Shown here: positions 7,732 to 57,313 of the stretch, piece after piece
Layout of the letters: every line of letters starts with the position of its first letter
Position numbering within the stretch: position 1 is the first letter of the stretch
Source: Gammaproteobacteria bacterium
GTDB lineage: Bacteria; Pseudomonadota; Gammaproteobacteria; Arenicellales; JAANXG01
Assembly (NCBI GenBank): GCA_024639325.1
Contig: JAHEIO010000002.1
Location: 24,132 to 88,131 of the forward strand
DNA: 64,000 nt
Reading direction: 5' to 3'
Position numbers and translations under genes: made by a program
The notes under the pieces: generated by a model
The model's database searches: none
What the model was told of the DNA's origin: nothing
Seen by the model: the letters and a program-made list of their open reading frames with translations, nothing else

Positions 7732-7911
7732 GCTGCGGCTCCGATGACTTGAGCGCCTTGACTGCGCGTGAGGATGCAAGTTTATCTGAATTTGGCCAAA
7801 CAATAGAACACCAGAATGTGAACCAAAGATGTACATTGTGGAATAAGATCTGATAGATACCCAGGAGTCTGGCAGAATCCGCGCGGCTACTGATTCGGGA
7901 ATACGAACTTT

Positions 7912-9729: not shown

Positions 9730-9848
9730 AAATGCGGATGACCGAATGGCCAGCACGAACTCGGTGCAATTTCGGTAATTGGGGTTGAACGGGTTTGACA
9801 ATACCGAATAACGCGGGTTGTGATGGCTGCGCGCCCGCGGTAACGTCG

Positions 9849-30450: not shown

Positions 30451-32961
30451 ATGGCTGAAGCAGGCGCGGCAACGGTTTTGGAAGCGGGCGCGGACGACCC
30501 GCCCAAACCTCGTATTCCCGAAAAGCACGTCACCTTCCTCGATCACTGGATTTCATTCCTGATCGCTGCCTACATTCCCTTTCTGCTGGTCGCCGGTGTG
30601 CTCAGTTACTTCAGTTTTGAGATCGCTAAAGGTCTCAAGCTGGATGCTAACATCACATCGCTGATGCCCGACGGCGTGCCCAGTGTCGACAATCTTAAAA
30701 CCGTCATCGATAAAACCGGCGGGTACAACAACGCGATGATACTTGTGGAATCACCGGATCCGGAAATCGCGTTTCGCTATCTCGATGATCTGGGCGCAAG
30801 GATCAGGCAAGAGGACTGGGTTACCAGCGCCGAGTACTCAGAGAACACTGCGATATTCGAACGCAACAAGCTGATTTATGTCGATCAGGAGGATTTGCAG
30901 GAAATGGACCGGCGCCTGGCTGAGCGCATGGAATTCGAGAAAAAGAACCTCGACTTCAGTGTCGATGGGATCCCGGTGGAAGTCACTATCCGTGATGCAC
31001 CCAGAACCCGTCCGGCACTCGAGTTCGAGGACATCGAGTCGAAGTACCGGCGGAAGCAGGCGGGCAGCAGTACCACCAAGTTGTTCACCAGCGAATCTAA
31101 GGATCTGACTATCCTGGTTGTGTTTCCCCAAGGAGGCACCACCAATGTTAAGTACTCCAGAAAAATTATCCGGGATCTCGAGGCGATCATCGCAGAGTCC
31201 GACGCTCAGTCGTACCATCCGGAACTGCGCGTAACGATTGGTGGAAGGATCGCAAATCGCGTTGCCAGCTTCGACTCCATCATGAGCGATGTCAAAGATA
31301 GCGGCTTGTGGTCGATTCTCGCCATATTCCTGGTGGTCGTGCTGTTTTATCGCCGTCTCATGGCAATCTTCTACATCGGGTTGCCGCTCAGCGTCGGATT
31401 TCTGCTCACATTTGCATTGACCAAACTGGTACTGGGCGGGCTCAATCTGGTCACGGTTTTTCTGGTGCTAATTCTGTTCGGACTGGGCATCGACTTCGGA
31501 ATCCACAATCTGGCCCGGTATGACGAAGTTAGAAAGAGCGGCGCCAATATGAGGACCGCGCTCAGAACGATCTACGCGAAAACCGGCCAAGCCTCGCTGC
31601 TGGCGGGGATCACCACGACATGCGGTTTTTATTCCCTGATGTTGACCAACTTCAAGGCGTTCTCGGAGTTTGGCTTCATCGCGGGCAGCGGTATTGTGCT
31701 GACCTTGTTCACGATGTACGTGTTTTTTCCGGCGCTGATGATTTTCGCCGAGAAAATCAGATTGTATCGACCGCCTCGATTCAGTCAGATTCAAAAAAAA
31801 TTAAAGACGCGGCCGTTTCCGGGAGTGGGGCCGATCATGGGCCTTGGAACGGTTTTTGTCTTCGCCGCGTTCTATCTGGCGCCAAATATACAGTTCGAGG
31901 ACGATTTCGGAAAAATAAAGACGAAAGTGCCCGAAATTTCCGAGACCAACGACAAGATAAGGAAAGTGTTTCCCCTGCGCACCGACAAAGCCATGGTGTT
32001 CGTCGAGCAGCTTGAAGACGTGGCGCCGCTGGTGGATGAACTCGAAAAAATCAGGCTCTCCAGGAGCGGTGACGACGTTACCATCGAGAAAGTCAAGTCG
32101 ATCTACAGCGTGGTTCCAAAGTCGGAGGATCAGTACGAGCGTTTGGAGGCCATCGACAGCATTCAACAGAAACTGTTGGAAGCGAGGCGATTGCTCAATG
32201 ATTTCAGTACCGAGAACGATCCGCGAAAACAGGACATCGAAGAAGCACTTCAATATTTCGGCGTGTCGCCGCTGACCGCTCAAGACCTGCCGACCGCGGT
32301 CCAGCGGATGTATACGGGATCGCCGGAGTCGGGCGGATATCTCGTCTATATCTACAACAGCAAAGGCATGTCCAAGCTAGAGAATGCCGAAGCTTTTGTG
32401 AATGACATCCGCGAAATCGAGGCCAATGGTAAAAAGTTCTACCCCGCGACCGAGGCGATGATATTCGTCGACATGATCAACCTGATGAAGCAGGATGCGG
32501 CGCGTGCGATTGGTGTCGTGTTGGCCTCGGTTTTCATCGTTCTTCTGGTTGCGCTCAGGCGACTGAAGCACACCATCGTGGTTATGGTTCCCGTTGTAAT
32601 TGGTATGCTATGGATGCTAGGCCTGATGGTGGCCCTGGACATTCGGCTGAACATTTTCAATATGGTAGTACTGCCCACGGTGCTCGGCATAGGGATCGAT
32701 AACGGCATCCATATTTTTCATCGCTACCAGGAAGAAGGCGGCCGTGTTTTCCACGTTGTCAGAACCACGGGCGGCGCCGCTTTCCTGACCACGCTGACGA
32801 CTATGCTTGGTTTTGCCGGGACGTTGACCGCGTCGAATCAGGGTCTGCAGTCGCTTGGCCTGGTGGCGTGCCTGGGATTGACCTGCTGCATGGTCAGTTC
32901 ACTTACGGTTTTTCCCGCTATCCTGCAGTGGACGGATACTGTCCGTAACGCCAGATCATGA
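30451..32961 (+). CDS. MMPL/RND-superfamily lipid exporter
   Basis: 836 aa with two repeats of a periplasmic loop plus a 5-6 TM bundle (e.g. LILFGLGIDFGIH and VLGIGIDNGIHIFHR), the typical MMPL/HpnN-like architecture. Confidence 0.8.
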   Translation: MAEAGAATVLEAGADDPPKPRIPEKHVTFLDHWISFLIAAYIPFLLVAGVLSYFSFEIAKGLKLDANITSLMPDGVPSVDNLKTVIDKTGGYNNAMILVESPDPEIAFRYLDDLGARIRQEDWVTSAEYSENTAIFERNKLIYVDQEDLQEMDRRLAERMEFEKKNLDFSVDGIPVEVTIRDAPRTRPALEFEDIESKYRRKQAGSSTTKLFTSESKDLTILVVFPQGGTTNVKYSRKIIRDLEAIIAESDAQSYHPELRVTIGGRIANRVASFDSIMSDVKDSGLWSILAIFLVVVLFYRRLMAIFYIGLPLSVGFLLTFALTKLVLGGLNLVTVFLVLILFGLGIDFGIHNLARYDEVRKSGANMRTALRTIYAKTGQASLLAGITTTCGFYSLMLTNFKAFSEFGFIAGSGIVLTLFTMYVFFPALMIFAEKIRLYRPPRFSQIQKKLKTRPFPGVGPIMGLGTVFVFAAFYLAPNIQFEDDFGKIKTKVPEISETNDKIRKVFPLRTDKAMVFVEQLEDVAPLVDELEKIRLSRSGDDVTIEKVKSIYSVVPKSEDQYERLEAIDSIQQKLLEARRLLNDFSTENDPRKQDIEEALQYFGVSPLTAQDLPTAVQRMYTGSPESGGYLVYIYNSKGMSKLENAEAFVNDIREIEANGKKFYPATEAMIFVDMINLMKQDAARAIGVVLASVFIVLLVALRRLKHTIVVMVPVVIGMLWMLGLMVALDIRLNIFNMVVLPTVLGIGIDNGIHIFHRYQEEGGRVFHVVRTTGGAAFLTTLTTMLGFAGTLTASNQGLQSLGLVACLGLTCCMVSSLTVFPAILQWTDTVRNARS

Positions 32962-33797: not shown

Positions 33798-35033
33798 TCA
33801 CCGCTCATGATTGACGACCGTAGAAACGTGTTTTCTCGAGATTGCCATGGCCATGGCAAAGTGGATACTGATGAACAATATTCCAGCCATGCTAATCCAG
33901 AACAACAGGTGATATCCAAATGGTGTGCCCGTGATCATGGGCGTAATTGACAGCAGAAACACGACGAATGAAAAAGAATCCCGTTTGCCGAGGATCTTCA
34001 GGCTGTCCAGCGCCTTGAACAGCCAGTTGGTCGGCGCTTCGCCCATTTTCTGGCCCAGATCCTGATGCACGGCCGTCATCGTCCCGGGCTGCCGGGTGTC
34101 CACGAGATACCAGGTCATGCCGCCAACCAGCACCAGCATCAACAGCACCATGCTGATGCCGAGCGGAAGCACCCATCCCGCAATCGCGTATTCGTGAGCC
34201 AGGGTGTAGCGTTCATATCCGATGATCAGGCAGACGGCGAACACCACGTATACCAGGTTGTCGCCCACCGTGTCGATCCAGGCGCCCAGCGGAGATGCGC
34301 GGAATGTGCTTCTGGCCAGCTCCCCATCGACCCGATCCAATGCCGCGCACAGTTGGAACAGCGTGCCGCCGATGGCCACGTCGGTCAGCCTGCCCCGGGA
34401 GACGAACCATGCGCTGATGAACCCCACGATGGTTGCCACCAGCGTCATCTGGTTGGGCGTGACGCCGAATTCGCAAAGCACTCGGCTGATAGGAATCGAG
34501 ATCCGCGAGTTCAGGTTGCGTGAAATCGGGCCGGATGTTGATTTGGTTACGTTGGCAAAAATGGCGTCTTTGGCGGCCTTGATATCTTGATGCTCGATCA
34601 CGGGGACGACATAGGCTCCCGTCGGCGAGTCCGGGCGCCAGAGGGGTTCCGGTGCCGAAGACCCGGTTCGTTCCATGCGTGGCGCCGCCGGCACGAATGC
34701 GGGATGTTCACATTCGGAAAGCAATTGCCATACCGGGTTTCCAACGACCACGTTGGCATCGACATGGATATCGGTTTTTTCAATCCGGGTTTGGGAAGTT
34801 TCCCAGCGAATGCCCCTGCCTTTCAGCCGCGGATCATCGCCACATCGGGATCGCGCCGTATCCGCATAGGATCCCGCAACCGAGATTTCGCCGGCGCCCG
34901 CCTGCATGGCGCCCAGGATCAATCGCGTCAGCACCATCACCCCGGCCACCTTCAGAAATGCCGGACTTTCTTCAGGCTCCACATCGGGGAGGTGGATGGT
35001 GACGGTGAACGCTTCCGGTTCAGCTCGATTCAT
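33798..35033 (-). CDS. CDP-alcohol phosphatidyltransferase with degenerate nucleotidyltransferase-like N-terminal domain
   Basis: 411 aa with an intact signature DRVDGELARSTFRASPLGAWIDTVGD (DGxxARx8Gx3Dx3D). The linker TKSTSGPISRNLNSRISIPISR resembles IPCT-DIPPS fusions. The N-domain lacks the GxGxR loop. Confidence 0.8.
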   Translation of the reverse strand: MNRAEPEAFTVTIHLPDVEPEESPAFLKVAGVMVLTRLILGAMQAGAGEISVAGSYADTARSRCGDDPRLKGRGIRWETSQTRIEKTDIHVDANVVVGNPVWQLLSECEHPAFVPAAPRMERTGSSAPEPLWRPDSPTGAYVVPVIEHQDIKAAKDAIFANVTKSTSGPISRNLNSRISIPISRVLCEFGVTPNQMTLVATIVGFISAWFVSRGRLTDVAIGGTLFQLCAALDRVDGELARSTFRASPLGAWIDTVGDNLVYVVFAVCLIIGYERYTLAHEYAIAGWVLPLGISMVLLMLVLVGGMTWYLVDTRQPGTMTAVHQDLGQKMGEAPTNWLFKALDSLKILGKRDSFSFVVFLLSITPMITGTPFGYHLLFWISMAGILFISIHFAMAMAISRKHVSTVVNHER

Positions 35034-36237
35034 ATTGATGCTTCTCGCCGCTCATGGGCAGGTATATGAACCTCATGAGATGGAATGCCAGAGTCAAAAC
35101 GTACCAGACGGTTATCAGTATCAATCCGATCTCCGCATCGCCGAGGATCAGCGCGATGAGCATGCACAACAGGAATGGATTCCGGCGTGCAATGAAGATC
35201 CGGACGGAATAATCGAGCCTGGTATAGTCGTGAAGTTCGTAACCGTACAACCGCTTGTACAGACCGGTGGCGATCTTGTCCGCAAGAAATGACGCTATCA
35301 GTAATGCGTGGATCTGCGCGATCTGATTGGACATATCGAGCAAGGCCCCGCCGCTCAGCGACCATCCGAGGCCGATGTACCATGCCAGCAGATACACGAA
35401 ATCGGAGACATGGTCCAGCAGATCCCCCGACCTGCTGGTCCTCATGGTTACCCTCGCCAGCTTGCCGTCTACGGTATCCAGAAACGCCATGGCAAACCCC
35501 ATGATCGTGGCGACCCAGTAATGACCGGTGAAAAACGGAACTATGGCCCCGAAGGACAAAAGCATGCTGAGCAGGGTGACCTGATTGGGTGTGATCGCAG
35601 TAGGGCTGATCATCCTTACCACCCACCGGGCCGGCAGGTAAAAAACATACTTGGTTATAAAATCGGTGGCGCCTTTGTAAACGGCTGCGAAAGTGATTTT
35701 TTCAGCAAGACGCAAATCTTCGCCGGAGTTCACGGCTATGACGAACGCGCTGACGCGTTTGCGGGTCGCCTGTATGTAGGTGCTGATGTCGGATTCGTGA
35801 ACCAGTTCTGCGGCGTTATCCAAATACCCTGCATGCGTTGTCGCGCCGACAAACCGATTGTCCATGTCGCAGCGGGTGTCCCGACCGGTTTCCTTGAGAT
35901 ACTCCAGAATACGGTTGTCGACCACGACGCCGGCATCGATGACCAGAGCGCGCCCATTGAATGCGGGAATTGAGCGTTCCGTCGAACCCTGGTCTATCTC
36001 CACCGTATCTACCCGTATCTTCGTCCATTTTGAAAAATCCCGCCGGACGAAGTCCTGCAACTGCAGGGGGGAACCACATATGACGCTAGCCTGATCGATG
36101 CCGATCTGAGAAAGCTGGCGCAGCAGCCGCTCCAACAGCGTCATGCCCCACAGGTTTGCCATGGCAAATCGGCCCGTGGCGATCACGTAGGCCCTGGAAA
36201 CACCTCTCGGAATTTCTGAGTTTGATTTGATTATCAT
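35020..36237 (-). CDS. CDP-alcohol phosphatidyltransferase with degenerate nucleotidyltransferase-like N-terminal domain (tandem paralog)
   Basis: Signature DTVDGKLARVTMRTSRSGDLLDHVSD. The start was set at ATG 36237 (MIIKSN...), which forms an ATGA overlap with the upstream flippase stop. The ORF-track extension to 36891 overlaps the flippase gene in another frame. Confidence 0.75.
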   Translation of the reverse strand: MIIKSNSEIPRGVSRAYVIATGRFAMANLWGMTLLERLLRQLSQIGIDQASVICGSPLQLQDFVRRDFSKWTKIRVDTVEIDQGSTERSIPAFNGRALVIDAGVVVDNRILEYLKETGRDTRCDMDNRFVGATTHAGYLDNAAELVHESDISTYIQATRKRVSAFVIAVNSGEDLRLAEKITFAAVYKGATDFITKYVFYLPARWVVRMISPTAITPNQVTLLSMLLSFGAIVPFFTGHYWVATIMGFAMAFLDTVDGKLARVTMRTSRSGDLLDHVSDFVYLLAWYIGLGWSLSGGALLDMSNQIAQIHALLIASFLADKIATGLYKRLYGYELHDYTRLDYSVRIFIARRNPFLLCMLIALILGDAEIGLILITVWYVLTLAFHLMRFIYLPMSGEKHQYESS

Positions 36238-37493
36238 TGGGCTGCCAGGATGCGCCGAACCACCGAACGGCCAAATAGATAAAGCAGTACGAAGTTTACC
36301 AACTGGCCCAGAGGGGCGCCAGTTTGGCCGATCCAGTAAATCATGATGACCGTCGTCGCCAGGCCGGCGATGCCCGCCATGCGCTCCCATATCAACGGCG
36401 CATCTGCCCCGCCTTTCACGACTATTACCGACAACTGGTATTCCGCGAGGCCGTTGAAAATGAACGCGATTGCCAAAATGGCCATTATCGGCCAGGCATC
36501 CGCGTAGGCGTCGCCACCGATCAACCGGACGAGCCACGGGCTGAGGCAAGCCGTTAACAACGGCAGCACGATCATGATCGAATAGTAGAGGCGCCGGTCT
36601 CGGCGGTAGCTCACTGCGTCGAGACCCGCGGCCAGCCTGACCGACAGCGGTCCGGCGAGTATCCTGGCGAGCTGGCTGAGTACCTGTGCCCCCTGCCGCG
36701 CGATGTGGTAACTGGCCATTTGAGCGAGCGGCAGCATGACGGCAATTACGACCCGGTCCAACTGGCGGAAGCCGCGACGGTAGAGCACCCGCTGATAGTC
36801 GGGAAAACAAGCCCTGAGTCGTTTTATCGCGCCGGCCGGGGACAGGGCTTGTAAACTGATGCGCATCAAGATGCTGCGAAGACTCCAGCACGCCAGCAAG
36901 AAGGTAATGAGTACGCCGATCATCAATCCTGCGAACAGGTAATCGACGCCCAGGGCCAGATACAGCAGGAAGGCAAACAGTTTTTCACTCGTTGCTGATC
37001 CCGAGTCGAGTAAAGAATCCAGCCAATACTGCTGCCGGGCGAAAAAAACCGGCGTCAGGATGTACTGGAAGTTTTTCAGCAGAACATGCGTGAAGACGAA
37101 CGGTAGGGCCATCTTAACGTTGATTTCAGGCGCGGCGGCCTGCAGTTCGTCCAGGAATAAATAGCCAAGAACCAGCAGCAGCGCAACAAATCCAATAGTT
37201 GCAGACAGCCGGATCAGCGTCGCCGGCCCGATGACCTTCTCCACGGCTTCTTCGCTCAGGCCCTGATCGATGAGTGGTGTGGCTTCCCGTATGACCTGAA
37301 AATGCAGGCCAAAGTCCAGCAACACCTTGGTCAGCATTACGATTGCGGCATGAACTCCGATCAGGCCCAGCACGGGTTTCGGCAGCTCGCGCGCGAAGTA
37401 AGCCAGAAACAGCAGCGACACCACCGCAACGGCGGCCCGGCTGATTACGATCTCGATAGCGGCGTGCAGTAGGCTTTTATGTTTGGCCTGCAT
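36234..37493 (-). CDS. MOP-superfamily (Wzx-like) polysaccharide/lipid flippase
   Basis: 419 aa, highly hydrophobic with about 12 predicted TM segments, and a general resemblance to polysaccharide biosynthesis (Wzx) transporters. Confidence 0.55.
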   Translation of the reverse strand: MQAKHKSLLHAAIEIVISRAAVAVVSLLFLAYFARELPKPVLGLIGVHAAIVMLTKVLLDFGLHFQVIREATPLIDQGLSEEAVEKVIGPATLIRLSATIGFVALLLVLGYLFLDELQAAAPEINVKMALPFVFTHVLLKNFQYILTPVFFARQQYWLDSLLDSGSATSEKLFAFLLYLALGVDYLFAGLMIGVLITFLLACWSLRSILMRISLQALSPAGAIKRLRACFPDYQRVLYRRGFRQLDRVVIAVMLPLAQMASYHIARQGAQVLSQLARILAGPLSVRLAAGLDAVSYRRDRRLYYSIMIVLPLLTACLSPWLVRLIGGDAYADAWPIMAILAIAFIFNGLAEYQLSVIVVKGGADAPLIWERMAGIAGLATTVIMIYWIGQTGAPLGQLVNFVLLYLFGRSVVRRILAAQ

Positions 37494-37565: not shown

Positions 37566-38351
37566 CTAGGAAGCGACCAGCGACAAATTTGAATTCGCCA
37601 GTTTTGAATTCGATTGGCGGACCCAGTTCGAAACCATGGTTTCGGCTTGTGTCCTGTCGACGGGAAAATCCACCTCACACCAGTCCAGTCCCTCGATCGA
37701 GCGAACCTCTACCCGGTTTGTCTGGGCGATGGCACCAATCGCGGACAGATACCAGATGTCAAGCGCGCCATCCGACCTCATCAGCTCGTTCAGCGTGTCG
37801 ACGAAAATACCGGGTCCTTTCCCGTGGAAATAGATCATTCCGATGGACTCGCCGCCGATCCGGTCTGTTGTCAGGTTTTTTCCGATCTCCAGAAGAGTGC
37901 TTCCATCGAGGTGGACCTTCATGTCGTCCTCATCGTAGTGGTCTTTCTTGTCGATGGCCAGAGTAATTGGTGCGGCGGGTTCGTTGAGCAGCCGCCTCAG
38001 TATGTGATAGTGGAAGATTGTGTCACCGTTGATCAACACGAAGTCCGCATCCATGACCCGTCGTGCCATCCAGCAGCTCACAAGATTGTCGGCTACCGCA
38101 TAGAACGGGTTGAATATAGCGTTGATCGTGCATCCTTTATAGACCAGCCTCAACTCGGCAATTTCGTCCTGCAGCACCCGCGCCTTGAATCCGGTGATTA
38201 CGTATATCTCGTTTATGCCGCACTTCGTGAGTTGAGATACCTGCCAGTCCAGCATGCTCCTGCCGGACAGCGCGATCGTCGATTTGGGCCGATCCGACGT
38301 CAACGGCAGCAGACGCTTGCCCTGACCGGCGCCTAGAATAATAGCTTTCAA
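37566..38351 (-). CDS. Nucleotidyltransferase (sugar/alcohol-phosphate cytidylyl- or nucleotidylyl-transferase)
   Basis: 261 aa with N-terminal MKAIILGAGQGKRLLPLTSDRPKSTIAL (GxGxR + PK motif) of the NTP_transferase fold. Confidence 0.8.
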   Translation of the reverse strand: MKAIILGAGQGKRLLPLTSDRPKSTIALSGRSMLDWQVSQLTKCGINEIYVITGFKARVLQDEIAELRLVYKGCTINAIFNPFYAVADNLVSCWMARRVMDADFVLINGDTIFHYHILRRLLNEPAAPITLAIDKKDHYDEDDMKVHLDGSTLLEIGKNLTTDRIGGESIGMIYFHGKGPGIFVDTLNELMRSDGALDIWYLSAIGAIAQTNRVEVRSIEGLDWCEVDFPVDRTQAETMVSNWVRQSNSKLANSNLSLVAS

Positions 38352-40750: not shown

Positions 40751-41416
40751 TTGAATAAGCGATTTATTGTTCGCTGCGCGCTGGTTGCGTTGCTGGCGGG
40801 AGACGGGCCGTTCGCCGTTGCCGAGGACCTTTGCGGTGAAATTCCTCCCGCGGCATTCAAGTCGCTGGAAGGCACGGCGTTCGAAAAGGTCAGGATCCAG
40901 GCGGATGAGATAGAATTTCCCGGCCGTAATGTCGTTATCCTGCGCGGTTACACCCAGTTGTTCAGGGGTGGACACCGGGTCAACTCGGATGCACTGGTTT
41001 ACTACAAGGCTAGGAACACGGTGGAGGCGAGGGGCTCCGTTACACTGCAGACCCGGAAAGGGGACGTCGTGAAGACGGACGTTCTGGCCTACGACATAAA
41101 AACCGGCATGGCCGTATCCGGCCCGGCGGAGTTTTCGATAGCAAACCGCCGGAGCGAGGTTCTTGGTTCGGCGGATAGTACCGTCAATGCCTTTGGAACA
41201 GCGGCGCGGGTCATGTTCGAGTCCGCCGATATCATGCTGCTGGAGGAAGCGGATGTTACGAGTTGTCTCGACGGTGAAAAAGACATTACTTTCCATGCCG
41301 TAAAGCTGCGGGTCGATCTAAACGAAGGCGTGCGCACCGGGACCCGTGTGAAGATCAGGATCGAAAATCCCGGTAAACACCGAAAACTGAGTGAACTCCA
41401 GAGGCTTATAGAGTGA
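40751..41416 (+). CDS. LptD N-terminal (OstA/beta-jellyroll) domain protein; truncated relative to full-length LptD
   Basis: 221 aa with a signal peptide. ...VRIQADEIEF..NVVILRGYTQLFRGGHRVNSDALVYY...EARGSV... and DVTSCLDGEKDITFHAVKLRVDLNEGV..TRVKI parallel E. coli LptD residues up to ...[26 protein letters not shown]..ARFKV. The ORF then stops where the LptD beta-barrel would begin. Confidence 0.65.
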   Translation: MNKRFIVRCALVALLAGDGPFAVAEDLCGEIPPAAFKSLEGTAFEKVRIQADEIEFPGRNVVILRGYTQLFRGGHRVNSDALVYYKARNTVEARGSVTLQTRKGDVVKTDVLAYDIKTGMAVSGPAEFSIANRRSEVLGSADSTVNAFGTAARVMFESADIMLLEEADVTSCLDGEKDITFHAVKLRVDLNEGVRTGTRVKIRIENPGKHRKLSELQRLIE

Positions 41417-41467: not shown

Positions 41468-42298
41468 TCAGGTCGCAGTTCGATCTGCCGTTCCGTCGGC
41501 ATAGTTCAACAAGGCATCCCGAAGATTTCTGTTGGTGCGACGTTGAGTTCTTCGCAACCAGATCAGCAGGCCGTTCAGCAGTATTATCTCGTAGAGAAAA
41601 AAAAGAATCGGTATTTTCGCCATACAGGATAGCGACAAGGCGATTGTCCTTTTATTGGAGCTCAACAATGTCCACAGACGGACGCTGCGCAGTGAGTGCG
41701 CCTGGTATGTTTTGCCGAATGTCCCCCGATCCGGGTGGCCACGCAGTTCTCTTTCGGCACTGATCAACTCATTGTCCGGCTCGGAAACCAGGTGCTGCAA
41801 TCTGACATACACACAATGACCCGCACGGAGCAGCGTGGCAGCGACCCCTGATCTGAAATCCAGTTCTATCGGATCTAGTGTTTGTGAGCATTTTCCGGTG
41901 TTACCATGCACCCAGCAGTCGTAATTATCCCGGTGAAATTCCAGGGCACCGGCCTGCAGTGCATGGCTCAGGCCCGCTGCAATTGCCAACAACCATATCG
42001 ACGTCCCGTATTGGGGTTGAAGCGCCAGAGCCAGGGCAACATAGACCATGCCGAAGCCCAGGTGGTCGCACAGGCCGTCGATAACTTTTCCAAACTCCGA
42101 TGTCGTTCCGGTCAATCGCGCCAGTTGCCCATCTGCGCCGTCGAGGACGTGCCACCCCGTCATGAAGACCAATCCCAGCATGGACATCGTGATGCTCTGG
42201 TAGTTATAGAAGCACCATGAAGCGATTAGTGCACTTGCCATGCCGAGTAGCGAAACAGTGTTCGGACTCCAGCCCCATAGCGCAAAAAGGCGGGTCAA
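41468..42298 (-). CDS. CDP-alcohol phosphatidyltransferase (stand-alone)
   Basis: 276 aa with the signature DGADGQLARLTGTTSEFGKVIDGLCD and multiple TM segments. Confidence 0.8.
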   Translation of the reverse strand: MTRLFALWGWSPNTVSLLGMASALIASWCFYNYQSITMSMLGLVFMTGWHVLDGADGQLARLTGTTSEFGKVIDGLCDHLGFGMVYVALALALQPQYGTSIWLLAIAAGLSHALQAGALEFHRDNYDCWVHGNTGKCSQTLDPIELDFRSGVAATLLRAGHCVYVRLQHLVSEPDNELISAERELRGHPDRGTFGKTYQAHSLRSVRLWTLLSSNKRTIALSLSCMAKIPILFFLYEIILLNGLLIWLRRTQRRTNRNLRDALLNYADGTADRTAT

Positions 42299-43642: not shown

Positions 43643-44488
43643 TTGAAATTTGAAGGTACGGATCGGTACGTCGCCACTGCGGATCTGATGATGGCTGTAA
43701 ACGCAGCCGTGGTTCTGCAGCGTCCGCTATTGGTAAAAGGAGAACCGGGCACCGGTAAGACCCAATTGGCAATCGAGGTGGCGCGGGCGCTGCAAAGACC
43801 GCTGATAGAGTGGCATATCAAATCGACTACGAGGGCGCAGCAGGGATTGTACGAGTACGACGCGGTGGCAAGGCTGCGGGATTCCCAGCTCGGCGAAGAG
43901 CGTGTGCACGATATCTCGAACTACATAAAAAAAGGCAAACTATGGCGGGCTTTCGAAAGTGAGGAACAGCCGGTATTGCTGATCGATGAGATCGACAAGG
44001 CCGATATCGAGTTCCCCAATGATCTGCTGCTGGAGCTGGATCGCATGGAGTTCTTTGTGTACGAAACGAGCCAACGTGTCAAAGCCCGCAATCGACCGGT
44101 GGTGGTGATTACCAGCAACAACGAGAAGGAGCTTCCGGATGCGTTCCTGCGCCGCTGTTTTTTTCACTATATCCAGTTTCCCGACCGAACAACCATGCAG
44201 TCCATCATCGATGTCCACTACCCCGGTCTCAAAAAGGAATTGTTGAGGGAATCTCTGGAGGTGTTTTTCGACCTGCGCGAAGTGCCGGGTCTGAAAAAGA
44301 AACCTTCTACTTCCGAGCTGCTGGACTGGATCAAACTTCTCGTGGCGGAGGACATTCCCCTTGAAGCATTGCGGTCGGAGGAACCGCGTACCGTAATCCC
44401 GCCCCTGTACGGCGCACTGCTGAAGAACGAGCAGGATGTCCACCTGTTCGAACGGCTGGTTTTCCTGAATCGGCGCGATGCTCGTTGA
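43643..44488 (+). CDS. MoxR-family AAA+ ATPase
   Basis: 281 aa with Walker A LVKGEPGTGKTQLA and Walker B VLLIDEIDKA. TTG start is preceded by a GAGGAG Shine-Dalgarno site at 43631-43636. Confidence 0.85.
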   Translation: MKFEGTDRYVATADLMMAVNAAVVLQRPLLVKGEPGTGKTQLAIEVARALQRPLIEWHIKSTTRAQQGLYEYDAVARLRDSQLGEERVHDISNYIKKGKLWRAFESEEQPVLLIDEIDKADIEFPNDLLLELDRMEFFVYETSQRVKARNRPVVVITSNNEKELPDAFLRRCFFHYIQFPDRTTMQSIIDVHYPGLKKELLRESLEVFFDLREVPGLKKKPSTSELLDWIKLLVAEDIPLEALRSEEPRTVIPPLYGALLKNEQDVHLFERLVFLNRRDAR

Positions 44489-45716
44489 GTTCTTCGAAAA
44501 ACTTCGCTGCGCGCGCATTCCGGTGTCCGTTACCGAGTTTCTGACTCTGTTGCGGGCACTGCGGAAACGTGTGTGCGGATTCGATGTCGAGGAGTTTTAT
44601 TTCCTGGCCAGGGCAACGCTGGTCAAGGACGAACGCCACTTCGATCGGTTCGACGTCGTATTCGGGGCACACTTCAAGGGTTCTGGAGAATTATTCGATC
44701 GAATTGTCGGCGAACTGCCGGAAGAGTGGCTGCGCAAACAGGCCGAACTTCTGCTGAACGAAAGCGAGAAACGGGACATCGAGGCCCTGGGCGGATGGGA
44801 CAGGCTCATGGAAACGCTGCGTCAACGTCTGCAGGAGCAGGAAAAGCGCCACCAGGGCGGCAGGAAATGGATCGGGACCGCCGGTACCTCGGCTTTCGGT
44901 GCGTACGGATTCAATCCCGAGGGCGTTCGCATTGGACAGGATAGATCCCGCAATCGGCGAGCGATAAAGGCATGGGATCGCCGGGAGTTCAGGAACCTGG
45001 ACGATGATCTGACTCTGGGCACCAGGAATTTGCAGATTGCGCTGCGGAAATTGCGTAAGTTCGCAAGAGAGGGTGCGGAAGAAGAACTGGATCTCGACGA
45101 CACGATTCGATCCACGGCGCGCAATGCCGGATTTCTGGACATAAAGCTCGTTCCGGAGCGCCGCAACGCGGCCAAGATATTGTTGTTCCTCGATGTCGGT
45201 GGATCCATGTATCCCTATGTCAAGGGCTGCGAAGAGCTGTTTTCCGCGGCACGCAGCGAATTCAAGCACCTGGAGTATTTCTATTTCCATAATTTTTTCT
45301 ATGATCATGTCTGGCGTGACAATCGGCGCCGCCATAGCGAAAAACTGCCCCTCCTCGATGTGCTCAGAACTTACGGCAAGGATTACAAGGTGATCATAGT
45401 CGGTGATGCAACCATGAGCCCCTACGAGATCACCGTGCCGGGCGGCAGCGTCGAATACTGGAACGAGGAACCGGGCGAGGTGTGGATGAAGCGACTGCTG
45501 GCCGCCTACTCGAGGGTGGCCTGGCTCAATCCGGTCCCGGTGAACCACTGGCCCCATACGATGTCCCTGCAGCGGATCAATGAGATGCTTGAAGGCCGGA
45601 TGTTTCCTTTATCGGTAGACGGTCTGGAACGCTGCATTCAGAGCCTGAAGGGTCAGCGGATAAGCAGCGATACTGTTGATCCGGCGGAAATCAGCGGCAA
45701 TTCGTACAGGCAATGA
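44478..45716 (+). CDS. VWA-domain (CoxE-like) partner of the MoxR ATPase
   Basis: 412 aa with the C-terminal VWA/MIDAS-like ILLFLDVGGSMYPY...VIIVGDATM. It overlaps the MoxR stop by 11 nt. Confidence 0.7.
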   Translation: MLVEFFEKLRCARIPVSVTEFLTLLRALRKRVCGFDVEEFYFLARATLVKDERHFDRFDVVFGAHFKGSGELFDRIVGELPEEWLRKQAELLLNESEKRDIEALGGWDRLMETLRQRLQEQEKRHQGGRKWIGTAGTSAFGAYGFNPEGVRIGQDRSRNRRAIKAWDRREFRNLDDDLTLGTRNLQIALRKLRKFAREGAEEELDLDDTIRSTARNAGFLDIKLVPERRNAAKILLFLDVGGSMYPYVKGCEELFSAARSEFKHLEYFYFHNFFYDHVWRDNRRRHSEKLPLLDVLRTYGKDYKVIIVGDATMSPYEITVPGGSVEYWNEEPGEVWMKRLLAAYSRVAWLNPVPVNHWPHTMSLQRINEMLEGRMFPLSVDGLERCIQSLKGQRISSDTVDPAEISGNSYRQ

Positions 45717-47027: not shown

Positions 47028-48503
47028 CTAGTTGGAAACTGCGGGATTGGTGTCGATTCCACCCATACACAAGTACTTGAGTTCGAGGAACTCGTCGATT
47101 CCGTATTTGGATCCCTCCCGACCAATGCCTGATTCTTTGACACCGCCGAAGGGCGCCACCTCATTGGATATAATTCCCTCATTGATACCGACGATGCCGT
47201 ATTCCAGCGCTTCGGCTACTCGCCATATACGTCCAATGTCCCGGCTGTAGAAATAAGCGGCCAGGCCAAACTCGGTGTCGTTGGAAATGCTTATCGCCTC
47301 GTCTTCCTCGTTGAATCGTATGATTGGAGCAACCGGTCCGAATGTCTCCTCGCGATTGATCAGCATGCTCGGGCTGACGTTGGTCAACACGGTCGGCTTG
47401 AAGAAGCTTCCGCCCAATTCATGGCGTTCGCCGCCGACTGCGATAGCGGCTCCTTCGGAGACCGCGTTGTGAATATGCTGCTCCACTTTCTCTATCGCCG
47501 CCATGTCGATGAGCGGACCTTGCTGAACACCGGGCTCGAGGCCGTTGCCCACCCGCAGTTCGGATGCTGCACCGGCGAGCTTCTCCGAAAACTCATCGTA
47601 GACAGAATCCTGCACCAGGAAACGGTTCGTGCACACGCAGGTCTGACCGGTATTGCGGTATTTGGAAGCAATTGCGCCGTCTACGGCTGCATCGATATCT
47701 GCATCGTCAAAAACCACGAATGGAGCGTTGCCACCGAGTTCGAGCGAAATTTTTTTGACGGTCTGCGCACATTGCGCCATCAACAGTTTCCCTATCTCGG
47801 TCGATCCCGTGAAACTGAGTTTCCGTACATGCGGGCTGGACGTCACCTCGTTGCCGATTTCGGTAGCCGAACCGGTAATAACGTTCACGGTACCCGGCGG
47901 CAGTCCGGCGCGATCTGCGAGTTCAGCCAGAGCCAGGGCCGTAAACGGCGTCTGTTTTGCCGGTTTTACGACCACGGGACAGCCGGCTGCCAGGGCCGGG
48001 CCGCATTTTCTGGTTATCATCGCGGCAGGGAAATTCCAAGGGGTAATCGCGGCCGTGACGCCTATCCCCTGCTTGATTACCAGGATGCGTTTACCCGGAA
48101 GCGGGTGGTCTATGGTGTCACCGTATATGCGCTTGGCTTCTTCAGCGAACCACTCCAGGAAGGAAGCGGCGTAAACCGTCTCACCCCGTGCCTCGGCCAA
48201 GGGCTTACCCTGCTCGGAAGTCATCAGGGTGGCGATGTCATCCTGGTGCTGAATTATCAGATCATGCCATGCACGTAACCGGGCGGCGCGTTCCTTGCCC
48301 GTGAACTGGCGCCATGACCCCCACGCTCGATGAGCGGCATCGATCGCTTCACGGACCTCGTCTATGTTCAAACTGGGAATAGTGCCGATGATGTCGCCTG
48401 ACGCGGGATTGTTGACCTCGATTTCCTTGCCACTGACAGAATTGCGCCACTCACCGTTGATAAAACAACTTTGCTTGAACAAATCCGGATCGTTTAGTTT
48501 CAT
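47028..48503 (-). CDS. gabD: Succinate-semialdehyde dehydrogenase
   Basis: 491 aa, near-collinear with E. coli GabD (MKLND..LF...INGEW, ITPWNFPAAMITRK, LELGGNAPF, FRNTGQTCVC, EETFGP). Confidence 0.93.
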   Translation of the reverse strand: MKLNDPDLFKQSCFINGEWRNSVSGKEIEVNNPASGDIIGTIPSLNIDEVREAIDAAHRAWGSWRQFTGKERAARLRAWHDLIIQHQDDIATLMTSEQGKPLAEARGETVYAASFLEWFAEEAKRIYGDTIDHPLPGKRILVIKQGIGVTAAITPWNFPAAMITRKCGPALAAGCPVVVKPAKQTPFTALALAELADRAGLPPGTVNVITGSATEIGNEVTSSPHVRKLSFTGSTEIGKLLMAQCAQTVKKISLELGGNAPFVVFDDADIDAAVDGAIASKYRNTGQTCVCTNRFLVQDSVYDEFSEKLAGAASELRVGNGLEPGVQQGPLIDMAAIEKVEQHIHNAVSEGAAIAVGGERHELGGSFFKPTVLTNVSPSMLINREETFGPVAPIIRFNEEDEAISISNDTEFGLAAYFYSRDIGRIWRVAEALEYGIVGINEGIISNEVAPFGGVKESGIGREGSKYGIDEFLELKYLCMGGIDTNPAVSN

Positions 48504-48527
48504 GCTGTTACTCTTGTACTCTTGTCG

Positions 48528-51176
48528 TTAATTTAGATTTTGGACACCGAGGGCGTTCAAATTGTCCCGGGCGACTTTGTCGCCTTGCTCTGCGGCAAGT
48601 TTTAGCCATTTTACGGCCTCGATTCTATTCTGAGCTACGCCTTTGCCGTCCGCATACATGGCGCCAAGGTTGGTCTGGGCACCCGCGTAGCCCTGTTCCG
48701 CCGCCGCGCGATACCAGCGCACGGCTTCCTTGTCGTTTTTTGTAACCAGCAGGCCGGTCTGATACAAGGAGCCGAGATCAGCCTGTGCCCAGGCGGCGCC
48801 GGCCACTGCGGCATTCTGGATTTGGGGAAATGCCTTTTTGATCAAGTTTGTTCCCGCGTCCAGGTTCTGGTCCACACCACGGCCCCGGAGATACATCACC
48901 CCGAGTCGAAACTGTGCCCGGGTACTCCCTTGCTCGGCCAGGGGTTTGAGGAGCGTGTATGCTGTTTCGTATCGACCGCTGTAGTAAGCGTCGATCCCCT
49001 TTGCCACCTGTTGTTCGTCGATCTTAACTTTCTGTACCGGGGGTTTTTTCTTTTTGTCAACTCGCGATGTGTCTGCGCGCTGCTGCTGTCGCGCGCTGGC
49101 CAGGGCCGATTGACGCAGTTTCATCTGCTCGCGCAAAAGATTCAGCGTCTCACTTTCCGGGTCGATCGATGCGGCGAGTGTCAAGTTTCTCTCCACTTCA
49201 TCGAAGCGGTCGATCGCCAGCGCTTTGTTGGCCTGGTCGACATAATATCGGTATATGCCGGAGATGCCCGCCAGCGCTTCCTCGTTTTCGGGGTCGATGC
49301 TCAACGCTTCTCTCAAGTAGGGCAGAGCATTCGCTGCGGATGAACGTGTCAGCGCTTTCCCGCCGTACGCGTCTTTTGCCTGAAGCAGCAGGGAACGAAT
49401 ACGGCTGGCGTTCTCGGATTGTCGGATTGTCTCCTGCTCCGCCGGCTGCTGTTCCTCGAGCCGTTGTTGCTCGGCGAGTTTTTCCAGCCTGATCCTTTCC
49501 TGTTCCACCCGCTGCTGTTCTTCGAGTCGCTGTTGTTCGGTGAGTCTTATCTGCCTGCTGCGCTCCTCTGCCGCTGATCTAGTTTGTATCTGCTCATCCA
49601 GTTGCTTGCGCAGTGCCGCCATGCTTTCAATTTCGATATCGGAGTCTTCGAGATCATCGAGAATCGTCATCGCCGTGTCCAGTTCTCCCCTCTCGAGGTT
49701 GTCTTTGGCGCGCGTTATCAGCGCCGTAACGATTTCGTCGATTCCTTGCCGCGCATCGATATTGCCTTCATCCAGTAACAGTACAGCCCGGAAGCTCGCA
49801 AGCGCATTCTCGTTTGCGGGTTTAATCATCTCCCCACGCTCCATCTTCTCCCTTGCGGTATCGAGGAGGGCGCGTATCCCCTTGGTTTTCTGGTCCAGGT
49901 TGCGGTATTGCTCCATACGAAAATCGTCGGCCTTGCGCGTAAACTTCACGGATTCAGGAAGGTCGGGGGGGGCGTCGCCCGGCAAAGGACGTTGCAGTAT
50001 GTCCTGCGGGATTTTTGTACCCTCGATGTTCGACGGCGCCTCGGTGACCTCACGCTCCGGCGGCGAAATGAATGGTTTTATCTGGGGCCAGAAGGTAAAG
50101 ATCCCGACAGCTATCAGAAATCCCAGCGAAATGATCCAAAACAGGGGATTCGATCCGCTTGGGACCCGTTTCGGCGGGACCCGGGTCCTCGGGTCAGCGT
50201 AGAGCCTGGGCGCGTCGAGCTTGATTTCTTTTTGCGCAACTTTCGGCGGTTGGATTTGTTGCTGCTCTTCCGGATCTGCCTCGCCGTGGTTTTCGGTCTC
50301 GGCAAAAGCTGGCATGATTTCATCAACGGATTGCGGGCGATCCTGCGGGGCCGGTCGCATCAGACGGTCGACTGCGTCGAGTATCCGGGAGCCATAGCCA
50401 CTGCGGTAGGTTTCTGCAGCGGATGGCAGCGGGTCTGGATTGCCGCGGGTCAGTTCTGATACCCGCGTGTTTGCAGCCACGGGGACGCGACCGGAAATGC
50501 ACCGGTACATCACCGCCCCCATTGCGTAAAGATCCGTCCACGGGCCCAGTTTGCCCTGGTCATTGTATTGTTCGATCGCGCTGTATCCCGGCGTGACCCG
50601 CGATTCCAGCTCGGCATTCCAGATTGGCAAGGTTCGGTGCGTACTGCCAAACCCAAGTAGCAGGGGCAGCCCGCCGTCGCGAATGAAGATATTTTCGGGA
50701 TTGACATCACGATGGAGCAGTCCGTGGGAATGGACTACCCGCAGCCCCTTCAGCAGTGGAACGAACAGATCACACAGCTCGGTTTGCGCCAGTTCTCCAT
50801 GCTGTTCCAGGTGGGCATTCAGTGTGATCCCGGATTCCAGATCCATCGACAGAAAAGCGGTTCCACCTGCTTCTGCATATTCCCTGACTCGGGTGAGATA
50901 GGGTTCCTGTATTTGTGAGAGGATGCGCGCCTCCTGGAGGAACAATGTGAGGCCTTCCTCGAATCTGCTTTCCTGGCCTGGCAACGGTTGTACGGCGGTG
51001 CTGCCCGGATGGCGTTCCGCAAGCTCCCGGGGAAAATACTCCTGTAACCAGAACTCCTGCTCCGTATCCTCGAGTCGAGCGCGATAGATCACGCTGTGGC
51101 TGTTGGTGTCCACGACCTCGACGATCGCGTACTTGCCTACGCGCGTGTTGGCTTTCAGTGCACGGGGTGGGGCCAT
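48528..51176 (-). CDS. Transmembrane Ser/Thr-kinase-like protein (degenerate catalytic motifs) with coiled-coil and TPR/Sel1-repeat extracytoplasmic region
   Basis: 882 aa with kinase-like LLHRDVNPENIFI, LLLGFGS (in place of DFG) and TPGYSAIEQ. One TM segment (LFWIISLGFLIAVGIFTFW), an EQQRLEEQQ coiled coil, and C-terminal Sel1-like repeats (A.F.LG.MY..G.GV..N...A..W...AA). Confidence 0.75.
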   Translation of the reverse strand: MAPPRALKANTRVGKYAIVEVVDTNSHSVIYRARLEDTEQEFWLQEYFPRELAERHPGSTAVQPLPGQESRFEEGLTLFLQEARILSQIQEPYLTRVREYAEAGGTAFLSMDLESGITLNAHLEQHGELAQTELCDLFVPLLKGLRVVHSHGLLHRDVNPENIFIRDGGLPLLLGFGSTHRTLPIWNAELESRVTPGYSAIEQYNDQGKLGPWTDLYAMGAVMYRCISGRVPVAANTRVSELTRGNPDPLPSAAETYRSGYGSRILDAVDRLMRPAPQDRPQSVDEIMPAFAETENHGEADPEEQQQIQPPKVAQKEIKLDAPRLYADPRTRVPPKRVPSGSNPLFWIISLGFLIAVGIFTFWPQIKPFISPPEREVTEAPSNIEGTKIPQDILQRPLPGDAPPDLPESVKFTRKADDFRMEQYRNLDQKTKGIRALLDTAREKMERGEMIKPANENALASFRAVLLLDEGNIDARQGIDEIVTALITRAKDNLERGELDTAMTILDDLEDSDIEIESMAALRKQLDEQIQTRSAAEERSRQIRLTEQQRLEEQQRVEQERIRLEKLAEQQRLEEQQPAEQETIRQSENASRIRSLLLQAKDAYGGKALTRSSAANALPYLREALSIDPENEEALAGISGIYRYYVDQANKALAIDRFDEVERNLTLAASIDPESETLNLLREQMKLRQSALASARQQQRADTSRVDKKKKPPVQKVKIDEQQVAKGIDAYYSGRYETAYTLLKPLAEQGSTRAQFRLGVMYLRGRGVDQNLDAGTNLIKKAFPQIQNAAVAGAAWAQADLGSLYQTGLLVTKNDKEAVRWYRAAAEQGYAGAQTNLGAMYADGKGVAQNRIEAVKWLKLAAEQGDKVARDNLNALGVQNLN
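49446..49544. repeat. Intragenic 33-nt near-duplicate with 66-nt period (encodes EQQRLEEQQ coiled-coil units)
   Basis: CTGCTGTTCCTCGAGCCGTTGTTGCTCGGCGAG (49446-49478) versus CTGCTGTTCTTCGAGTCGCTGTTGTTCGGTGAG (49512-49544). Confidence 0.7.
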
Positions 51177-51447
51177 CTGGGGAACTGGTTAAGTGTAACT
51201 CTCTATTTTGCAATGGTTTTTGATCTCTGGTCCAGCCAAAGAAGCTGCAAATTCGATGGTTTTTACCGAATACCGACGGTGTTCAGTGTTTTTCGCCCTT
51301 GCCCGCGCATGCCGCCGCAGCGGCCGGGCTAGCACCGGTCCTGAAAAGATAGATAATCGCGACTCCCCAGTCCGGCGTTCATCGGCACCTGCCCTGCGCA
51401 AGCGCTCGGGATCCTGGTGAGAAATGCGGGCTAGAAATTCCTCAAAG

Positions 51448-51467
51448 AGCCGTATTCAGCAACGGCT
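51448..51467 (-). terminator. Candidate rho-independent terminator after the prpE-like gene
   Basis: AGCCGT (51448-51453) pairs with ACGGCT (51462-51467) just downstream (minus strand) of the stop at 51474. The following minus-strand tract CTTTGAGGAATTTCT is only weakly U-rich. Confidence 0.4.
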
Positions 51468-51473
51468 GATTTT

Positions 51474-53372: not shown

Positions 53373-53420
53373 AGGTGGTATTCCGATTGTTGTGTGCTAT
53401 GTCAGTTGTGGCCGTAAATG

Positions 53421-53804
53421 TTACAACGAACATGATCCGCAATTTCTTGACTTGAGGCAACATTCTCGTTCACTGGAAACCGCTTCTCCCTCGATCTCGA
53501 CCAGCGGGCCGGGGTGGGCGAGCGCCTTGTTGACGAGATAGGTCGCGGCGAGTATGGCGAATATGTGGTTCCAGCAGCGTCTCATCTGGGCATCGAGTCT
53601 CTCGACAATGCTGCCGTCCGTATCGACACCGATCTGACCGGCGATGATCAGACGCCGCGCATTCGCTGGTACGTCCACACACTGGCCGTAGTTCGACGCC
53701 GGTCGAGTGTTATCCTCTGGTTTTAGCAGCTTCACGACCGTTTTCTCCGGGTCTGGCCCATGGGGCGCCGGGCCGGGTGCCGATCGTTCCCGATTGTGCT
53801 CCAT
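53421..53804 (-). CDS. RidA/YjgF-like protein, apparently shortened (possible gene remnant)
   Basis: LIIAGQIGVDTDGSIV..LDAQMRRCWNHIFAILAA and PGPLVEIEGEAV match the start and end of the RidA fold. The roughly 35-40 aa normally between them seem to be missing. Confidence 0.35.
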   Translation of the reverse strand: MEHNRERSAPGPAPHGPDPEKTVVKLLKPEDNTRPASNYGQCVDVPANARRLIIAGQIGVDTDGSIVERLDAQMRRCWNHIFAILAATYLVNKALAHPGPLVEIEGEAVSSERECCLKSRNCGSCSL

Positions 53805-53997
53805 GGGTGCAACTCGAGTCCGGCGCCCCGAACAGGTTCGTGGGTACGCATTCTCCCGAAATCGAGCCCAATTTGCGCTGAAATTGACCTCGACCGCATA
53901 TTTTTGATGATATGATCGTGGAGAAGTCATGAGGGGATGGATTAGCTGATCTTCTGGGTCACTGCAATCGAAATTACAAAATCGGAGTAATCAAGGT

Positions 53998-57311: not shown

Positions 57312-57313
57312 TC

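Follow-up and report, generated by a model that had tools for sequence, protein, structure and literature searches.

How does a membrane transferase that carries a nucleotidyltransferase-like domain of its own come to be encoded beside a separate, intact nucleotidyltransferase (NT)? The question is raised by two adjacent genes, here called A and B, in a 64,000-nt stretch (the window) of contig JAHEIO010000002.1, positions 24,132 to 88,131, from a Gammaproteobacteria bacterium (assembly GCA_024639325.1). A sequence-only reading of this DNA had proposed that the N-terminal domains of A and B have become non-catalytic and that a free-standing NT supplies the activated alcohol in trans. This proposal is supported by fold, motifs and gene linkage, and NTs of the same clade accompany A- and B-like genes in several phyla. 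The reading that we consider probable overall is that CDP-glycerate is made in trans, that B and A transfer phospho-headgroups to a lipid and that their N-domains are structural. The locus would then be a clear case of a fused enzyme domain that decays to a pseudo-enzyme while a free-standing paralogue keeps the chemistry. The two genes, which encode predicted CDP-alcohol phosphotransferases (CDP-APs) with six transmembrane (TM) helices, and their parts are:

35020-36237, minus strand: gene A, 405 aa; predicted CpgA-family CDP-AP with a pseudo-NT N-domain, a linker and a six-TM catalytic domain
33798-35033, minus strand: gene B, 411 aa; predicted DIPPS/AF2299-like CDP-AP with a pseudo-NT N-domain, an IPCT-DIPPS-type linker and a six-TM domain
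35683-36237, minus strand: N-domain of A (aa 1-185), predicted truncated NT (Rossmann-like) fold without catalytic residues
34539-35033, minus strand: N-domain of B (aa 1-165), predicted truncated NT fold without catalytic residues
35401-35478, minus strand: CDP-AP catalytic signature of A, D254-D279, DTVDGKLARVTMRTSRSGDLLDHVSD
34260-34337, minus strand: CDP-AP catalytic signature of B, D233-D258, DRVDGELARSTFRASPLGAWIDTVGD

The start of B (35033) lies 14 nt inside A, whose stop codon ends at 35020, and the start ATG of A (36237-36235) shares bases with the TGA (36236-36234) of the upstream gene for a 419-aa membrane protein (ccaATGAtaa). Both overlaps had been described before, and the coordinates confirm them. 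Database searches returned 376 homologues of A (best E 1e-257) and 156 of B (best E 3e-262). Because homologues are numerous, with very low best E-values, and the synteny is conserved, A and B are genuine genes rather than chance open reading frames (ORFs).

The C-terminal half of each protein matches PF01066 (A, 47 bits, residues 215-318; B, 39.2 bits, residues 192-299; Pfam cut-off 22). This was the sole Pfam match, with no Pfam family found for the N-terminal 165-190 aa of either protein. The signature D-x2-DG-x2-AR-x8-G-x3-D-x3-D is complete in both. Among 74 homologues of A, D254, D257, G258, A261 and R262 are invariant and G271, D275 and D279 are conserved in at least 90%; among 46 homologues of B, the residues D233, D236, G237, A240, G250, D254 and D258 are invariant. 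By signature, Pfam score and six-TM core, A and B are thus class I CDP-APs (PF01066) as far as sequence can tell, and the membrane domain is intact in both, as had been claimed. The two proteins are 29% identical over 189 aa and belong to separate orthologue families that extend across phyla, with members of both on the same contigs in several lineages. A recent tandem duplication of A and B is ruled out by this low identity and by the separate families. The earlier description as tandem paralogues therefore holds for adjacency and common ancestry but not for a recent origin: A and B are, judged by their sequences, ancient paralogues from different subfamilies, and they probably catalyse different steps.

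AlphaFold2 models of A (pLDDT 91.9, pTM 0.89) and B (pLDDT 89.8, pTM 0.86) were built on family alignments. Both models have an alternating β/α N-domain, which in A begins with the pattern E15-19, H34-44, E49-54, then a linker that includes juxtamembrane helices, and finally six long TM helices. The top full-length matches of both in a Foldseek search of the PDB were IPCT-DIPPS (4MND) and AF2299 (4O6M/4O6N), with target-normalised TM-scores of 0.70-0.76 (0.76 for A against 4O6M). Further matches were, in order, AF2299-domain/PIPS chimeras and then RmlA, IspD, MurU, CobY, HddC and AfIPCT (2XMH), and the six-TM cores matched 4O6M, 4MND, 5D92 and 6H59. When the N-domains were aligned by hhalign with active NT domains (the window NT and the N-halves of four bona fide bifunctional relatives), the probabilities were 97.9% for A and 97.0% for B. 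HMMs of the N-domains only also picked up stand-alone NTs of related loci. The sequence-only reading had suggested a comparison of predicted structures with IPCT-DIPPS, and on the models so compared the N-domains of A and B have an NT fold.

The catalytic residues did not survive with the fold. In active relatives, strand β1 is followed by about 19 residues of the form G-A-G-x-G-x-R-L...P-K. The corresponding loop of A (residues 20-28) has 8 residues (TGRFAMAN) that vary within the family and include neither GxGxR nor Lys, and that of B has 12 residues that fit L-P-x7-P-A-F, Gly, Arg and Lys all being absent. The stretches VIATGRFAM and VTIHLPD, which had been read as a degraded and a missing GxGxR loop, indeed correspond to β1 and the next loop of the predicted N-domains, where active enzymes have G-x-G-x-R. 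The Mg-binding Asp of the (N/S)-G-D motif is replaced by G103 in A, with D in only 35% of the A family, and by N94 in B, where the family has N in 62% and D in 24%. An alignment with active cytidylyltransferases, proposed earlier as a check, thus shows the binding residues to be lost and unconserved in both families. The N-domains also fall 60-80 residues short of the length of active NTs, with most of the substrate lobe gone. What is retained is a structural core with G-x-x-L-L-E/x-R in the first helix and, following the central strand, D-x-R. Close orthologues of A are 50-56% identical in the N-domain versus 76-83% in the TM domain, so the N-domain evolves faster; an A-type N-domain HMM nevertheless matched all 111 of 111 sampled A-type ORFs. 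For mid-range orthologues of B, the N-domain is about as conserved as the TM domain.

The equal conservation of the two domains of B, together with the retained fold, first-helix motif and D-x-R motif, could be taken to mean that the fused N-domains have kept cytidylyltransferase activity by way of non-canonical motifs and that A and B are truly bifunctional. We regard this as very improbable: 8-12 variable or acidic residues stand in the place of the 19-residue GxGxR...PK loop, the Mg-binding Asp is unconserved, the domains are shortened and lack the substrate lobe, and an intact NT is always encoded alongside. The corresponding domain of AF2299 has likewise been described only as "cytidylyltransferase-like" (PMC4634129). 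From their sequences, then, the N-domains of A and B are predicted to be catalytically dead, truncated NTs. By analogy they most likely have a structural role, capping the TM domain on its cytoplasmic face and providing an interface there, and putative docking of the stand-alone NT is possible.

The chemistry that the fused domains have lost is predicted for the product of a third gene of the same operon, located two genes upstream of A:

37566-38351, minus strand: stand-alone cytidylyltransferase of predicted CpgD type (LicC/IPCT superfamily), 261 aa, TTG start; PF00483, PF12804

This protein had been called an intact NT, and its catalytic set is indeed complete (GAGQGKR, K23 and NGD). Its nearest solved relatives are LicC (1JYK, 8.8e-11) and the Thermotoga IMPCT (4JD0). 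The latter is the top structural homologue reported for CpgD, and a 2026 preprint on CpgD describes that enzyme as homologous to choline-phosphate cytidylyltransferase (LicC class). Against the NTs at the CC_1152 position in Caulobacterales and Rhodospirillales, the window NT scored 199-248 bits (44-50% identity). Loci of Brevundimonas, Phenylobacterium and further Caulobacterales encode an NT that shares 44-46% identity with the window NT and is arranged divergently to a CofC-like NT, as in the CC_1152/CC_1153 arrangement. All-against-all scores separated the NTs into two clades. The CpgD-type clade (120-313 bits) contains the window NT, the Caulobacterales and Rhodospirillales NTs and the NTs beside A- or B-like genes in Gemmatimonadota, Bacteroidota and the loci L088, L091 and L092; the IPCT-type clade is made up of NTs encoded next to MIPS and of the fused domains from active bifunctional proteins. 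An NT at the Caulobacter sp. AP07 locus (L046, 3200-4228) was tried as a CpgD and rejected, as it matches the window NT weakly and is a CofC-like NT of the CC_1153 type; true CpgD-type NTs were located in other Caulobacterales loci.

We mapped the residues reported for CpgD through one such Caulobacterales orthologue (L031; global identity to the window NT 47.6%). R13, K23 and D110 of the window NT correspond to the catalytic R16, K26 and D112, and N89, N108, M144, K158 and S169 to the glycerate contacts N90, N110, M147, K161 and S170; the offset of this numbering is deduced from R16, K26 and N90, which fall at their published numbers in the orthologue, and not from the C. crescentus sequence itself. 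Because both catalytic and glycerate-contact residues are conserved, CDP-glycerate is the most likely product of the window NT, to judge from these alignments.

The same donor is suggested by the identity of A. A is 33% identical over 387 aa (E 3e-47), N-domain included, to the gene at the cpgA position of Caulobacter sp. AP07, and it shares the CpgA-family motifs WGMT..ER, YKGxTD and DTVDGKLAR. The AP07 gene is followed by genes at the cpgB and cpgC positions, with spt, cerR and an acyl-ACP (acyl carrier protein) synthetase gene (aasR) on the opposite strand. A scan of species-representative genomes with the A alignment gave at least 584 relatives, and we examined 80 A-family loci with flanks of 10 kb. 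Within this distance a CofC-like NT was found at 56 of the 80 loci, a CpgC-like gene at 55, an NT of the window type at 51, LptF/G at 45, a CpgB-like gene at 40, serine palmitoyltransferase (SPT) at 35 and CerR at 33. By sequence, A belongs to the CpgA family and corresponds to CpgA of Caulobacter. Conversion of ceramide-phosphoglycerate (CPG) to CPG2 in C. crescentus requires CpgA (PMC9393093), and CpgD (CCNA_01210/CC_1152) is an Mg-dependent CTP:phosphoglycerate cytidylyltransferase whose product, CDP-glycerate, is the proposed CpgA donor (PMC12275187, PMC13228409). With A in the CpgA family and the NT of CpgD type, CDP-glycerate becomes the most likely donor, ahead of the CDP-inositol, CDP-glycerol, CDP-choline and CDP-ethanolamine that the sequence-only reading had put forward. 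Loci with two CpgA-like paralogues together with CpgB, CpgC and both NT types were also seen in Rhodospirillales, Binatia and Myxococcota (L009, L015, L035, L048), which hints at longer or branched phosphoglycerate head groups.

B is of a different kind. Against the AP07 cpgA-position protein it reached only 26% identity over 125 aa, and no full-length homology to CpgA was found. Its best PDB match by phmmer was IPCT-DIPPS (4MND; B, E 7.2e-15; A, E 1.5e-7), and the NCBIfam model NF041135 gave 96.1 bits for B (from residue 143) and 56.5 bits for A (from residue 162), against a cut-off of 580 and over the linker and TM part only. As the 4MND alignments also start in the linker, the likeness to the IPCT-DIPPS junction that had been noticed there is real. 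B is 35-38% identical to three active bifunctional metagenomic proteins (P0158, P0161, P0163), with which it has the linker and a GKRD motif in common. These matches place B, on sequence grounds, in a DIPPS-like subfamily closest to IPCT-DIPPS. A metagenome scan with the B alignment listed only distant matches (at most 35% identity), with no close B orthologue among them. Of the 80 distant relatives listed, at least 20 carry the canonical GxGxR in their fused N-region, and the majority of the remainder lack it; degenerate fusions are therefore common.

B-like genes consistently adjoin a stand-alone NT, which is of CpgD type in L003, L174, L088, L091 and L092; in L090 the NT beside the B-like gene scores lower against the CpgD-type clade (79-107 bits). 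B-like genes with MIPS and an IPCT-type NT were found in L089 and also in L088. This bears on the idea that B itself is an inositol-phosphate transferase, which would use CDP-inositol from MIPS and IPCT encoded elsewhere and make ceramide-phosphoinositol or phosphatidylinositol-type lipids, so that only A would use the product of the CpgD-type NT. Such a role would suit the nearness of the B family to active bifunctional IPCT-DIPPS proteins in identity, linker and GKRD motif, the L089 gene that is paired only with MIPS and an IPCT-type NT, and the CDP-inositol route proposed in Bacteroidetes (PMC9246714). We consider it unlikely here, since the window holds neither MIPS nor an IPCT-type NT, the sole NT adjacent to the B-like gene is of CpgD type in L003, L091, L092 and L174, and in L088 it is the CpgD-type and not the IPCT-type NT that lies directly upstream of the B-like gene.

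L088 itself has one gene row (5145-10173) that consists of MIPS, an IPCT-type NT, a 143-aa ORF, a CpgD-type NT 59% identical to the window NT and the B-like transferase. Two differently activated donors may feed one pseudo-NT transferase.

The acceptor is suggested by the genes around A, B and the NT, which are:

36234-37493, minus strand: polytopic membrane protein, weakly MOP/Wzx-flippase-like, 419 aa; translationally coupled to A
41468-42298, minus strand: third CDP-AP, without an N-domain, 276 aa; PF01066 8e-13; 69-71% identity in L001
39598-40629, minus strand: radical SAM enzyme; PF04055 7.8e-19; 83-84% identity in L001 and L002
38488-39528, minus strand: PLD-like (two-HKD) protein, variable accessory gene; PLDc_2 3.7e-23; absent from L001 and L002
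27960-29219, plus strand: SPT; NF047600 E 9.9e-159; 92% identity in L001
26980-27969, plus strand: CerR-like NAD-dependent epimerase-family reductase; PF01370 2.1e-40; overlaps the SPT start
30451-32961, plus strand: MMPL/RND-type lipid transporter; PF03176 4e-39; 84% identity in L001
29334-30440, plus strand: conserved 368-aa protein with signal peptide; no Pfam/NCBIfam match; 67-68% identity in L001
32956-33801, minus strand: 281-aa ORF directly after B, possible GTGA overlap; twin-arginine (Tat) signal (VKRRDFILLSAAIGIGVAASPFA)
40751-41416, plus strand: 221-aa signal-peptide protein, opposite in strand amid the minus-strand operon; 69% identity in L001; no family match

The closest syntenic loci (L001 and L002; 68-92% protein identity) keep the small CDP-AP, the radical SAM enzyme, the NT, the 419-aa MOP-like protein, A, B, MMPL, a 365-aa secreted protein, SPT and the CerR-like gene. 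Absent from both loci are the PLD-like gene and the 281-aa Tat-signal gene, the latter also without a Pfam or NCBIfam match. Homologues of the PLD-like protein (32-33%) were found in Myxococcota, beside SPT or between two CpgA-like genes (L048 2343-3302, L035 5161-6072), and it may be an optional head-group-remodelling enzyme. The window SPT is 53-57% identical to SPTs of Myxococcota and Binatia versus 38-40% to the Caulobacter type; its best NCBIfam model is the "CFB" SPT, with a score below the cut-off. The CerR-like reductase is 25-35% identical to genes at the CerR position, and MMPL homologues also occur near distant B-like genes in L094 and L098.

The upstream gene had been called a flippase. 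It is indeed polytopic and coupled to A, but the MOP/Wzx likeness is weak (Polysacc_synt E 0.0015, below the Pfam cut-off; weak TuaB/MOP matches in NCBIfam). Homologues of this protein (33-38% identity) adjoin A-like genes in Bdellovibrionota (L005) and Bacteroidota (L006, L023).

By tblastn and profile HMMs (E<=100), no CpgB, CpgC, CofC-like NT or 383-aa bCerS-position protein was found in the window, and neither were MIPS, ACP, an acyl-ACP synthetase or a Caulobacter-type ceramide synthase. In the other direction, B was matched only twice, and weakly, at the 80 A-family loci (24% and 29% identity, the 29% match overlapping an A-like gene), in a sample with few B-containing loci and flanks limited to 10 kb. 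A bare A-NT-B module with unrelated flanks was found in Gemmatimonadales and Longimicrobiales of the Gemmatimonadota (L003 10001-13657, L174 10001-13403).

Some further features were noted. The radical SAM enzyme has its best weak matches in MoaA, the tetraether synthase Tes and viperin. Outside the lipid cluster, the window encodes a pair of a MoxR-type AAA ATPase and a VWA (CoxE-like) protein (43643-45716, plus strand) and an 882-aa Ser/Thr protein kinase with Sel1/TPR repeats (48528-51176, minus strand). The AT skew is strongly negative at 48001-54000 and 56001-58000 (down to -0.25) versus the rest of the window.

From the orthology of the NT, the family of A and the genomic context we propose the following route. 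The CpgD-type NT would join CTP and phosphoglycerate to CDP-glycerate. B would then move phosphoglycerate, or another phospho-alcohol, onto the hydroxyl of a lipid, probably ceramide from the neighbouring SPT and CerR-like genes, and A would add a second unit in the manner of CpgA. The coupled MOP-like protein and the MMPL transporter might export the product. B is proposed as the priming transferase because the CpgB kinase and CpgC, which prime in Caulobacter, are missing from the window and because CpgB/CpgC and B are complementary across loci.

Several points weigh against this route. CpgD is the sole family member with biochemistry and the activity of CpgA is known from genetics, and the CpgD residues were matched through an orthologue. 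The six-TM CDP-APs characterised to date use soluble acceptors (PMC4634129), and the closest named relatives of B make a soluble product (DIPP). Since the B-like genes of L088 and L089 stand beside MIPS and an IPCT-type NT, CDP-inositol is probably the donor for some members of the B family. No SPT lies within 10 kb of the Gemmatimonadota modules, which means that the acceptor could be something other than a sphingolipid. Finally, the window is 64 kb of a metagenome-assembled genome, the rest of which could encode CpgB, CpgC, a ceramide synthase or MIPS.

Some of these points would also fit another view, namely that B and possibly A produce solutes that are soluble phosphodiesters like DIP, glycero-phospho-inositol or diglycerol-phosphate, as AfDIPPS does and AF2299 may do, and that the link to lipids is coincidental. 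The best named matches of B are IPCT-DIPPS (NF041135, 96 bits; 4MND, 7e-15), a six-TM architecture typically goes with soluble acceptors (PMC4634129), B-like genes lie beside MIPS and an NT in L088 and L089, and there are no lipid genes near the Gemmatimonadota modules. This view appears improbable to us in light of the membership of A in the CpgA family, whose genetic role concerns a sphingolipid, and of the coupling of A to a polytopic MOP-like protein that is kept beside A-like genes in three phyla. SPT, CerR-like and MMPL genes are moreover syntenic in L001 and L002, sphingolipid or cpg genes accompany 35 to 55 of the 80 A-family loci, and the window NT is of CpgD and not of IPCT type.

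The MOP/Wzx-like protein coupled to A also invites the thought that A, B or both are processive and extend a lipid anchor with a teichoic-acid-like chain of poly(phospho-X), which the Wzx-like protein then flips. Some loci have two CpgA-like paralogues, the authors of the CpgD work draw an analogy between CpgD and TagD-TagF, and Zik et al. were unable to exclude higher-order phosphoglycerate polymers (PMC9393093). Caulobacter nevertheless shows CPG and CPG2 only, the MOP assignment falls below the Pfam cut-off, and genes for polymer length or ligation were not recognised, so that we hold a polymer to be quite unlikely.

The proposed two-step transfer can be taken further. B might be a one-step CDP-glycerate:lipid (ceramide) phosphoglycerate transferase that replaces the CpgB kinase and CpgC, and A and B might form a two-step, possibly heterodimeric machine whose dead NT domains recruit the CpgD-type NT for direct hand-over of CDP-glycerate. 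A heterodimer is conceivable because A and B are translationally coupled and the solved members of this class are obligate dimers. We offer this elaboration tentatively, as rather doubtful in its entirety. If it is true, the Gemmatimonadota A-NT-B module would be a portable three-gene cassette for di-phosphoglycerate lipids.

The anionic ceramide-phosphoglycerate lipids matter for the survival of Caulobacter without lipid A, for its polymyxin sensitivity and for virulence in an insect model. Here CpgA- and CpgD-like genes are found far outside the Alphaproteobacteria and among different neighbours. The compact A-NT-B module, which has no CpgB or CpgC, would be well suited to defining the donor, the acceptor, the order of steps and the role of the pseudo-enzyme domain.

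Among known systems, the closest in structure is AF2299 of Archaeoglobus fulgidus (4O6M, 4O6N, 4Q7C), which like A and B combines an NT-like domain without the catalytic loop, juxtamembrane helices and a six-TM CDP-AP. It matches the A family by profile (E 1.9e-18), and the two have the helix motif G-x-T-L-x-E-R in common; this motif of AF2299, LLGLTLRERIEKTL, aligns with lwGmTLlERllRqL of the A-family profile as a weak match. AF2299's "cytidylyltransferase-like domain", solved in 2014, packs on the TM2-TM3 loop and has served as a crystallisation chaperone when grafted onto PIP synthases (PMC4634129). The domain lies over part of the substrate pocket (PMC8633023), and AF2299 and AfDIPPS both carry such a domain at the N terminus (PMC4634129). 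Unlike A and B, AF2299 is archaeal, is 14-17% identical to them in structural alignment and has a shorter N-domain. It was crystallised with CDP-glycerol, and neither a stand-alone CpgD-type NT nor a sphingolipid context is known for it. Since the whole CpgA family appears to bear an AF2299-type dead NT domain, the solved structure is a usable template for CpgA.

IPCT-DIPPS (AF0263, 4MND; NF041135) has the domain order of A and B, the TM domain and the linker K-x-T-x-G-P-I/V-S-R-x-x-N-x-x-I-S. Its N-domain of about 230 aa is an active CTP:inositol-1-phosphate cytidylyltransferase with the GxGxR, Lys and Asp that A and B lack, and its product DIPP is soluble. The inositol-lipid cluster of Bacteroides vulgatus and Prevotella (Heaver et al. 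2022; PMC9246714) also belongs to a sphingolipid producer, in which a separate NT is proposed to supply the CDP-alcohol to a membrane CDP-AP for assembly of a lipid head group. MIPS and a HAD hydrolase form the centre of that cluster, and the window has neither; its route is a proposal only, and no pseudo-NT domain has been reported for it.

The closest in function is the pair of Caulobacter CpgA (CCNA_01217/CC_1159) and CpgD, which follows the same logic, with a soluble NT that makes the CDP-head group and a membrane CDP-AP that transfers it. Both this cpg cluster and that of the window are linked to spt and cerR. The window differs in lacking CpgB (the ceramide kinase), CpgC, the CofC-like NT (CC_1153), ACP/AasR and LptF/G-type genes, in place of which it has B, the third small CDP-AP and the MOP-like, radical SAM, PLD-like and MMPL proteins; its SPT is of the Myxococcota/Bacteroidota type, unlike that of Caulobacter. 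Taken together, the architecture is already known, with AF2299 as the structural precedent and CpgA/CpgD as the functional precedent with the NT in trans. What the present analysis adds is the recognition that the whole CpgA family bears an AF2299-type pseudo-enzyme domain, a cpg-like cluster in which CpgB and CpgC are absent and a second, DIPPS-like pseudo-NT transferase is present, and a portable A-NT-B module.

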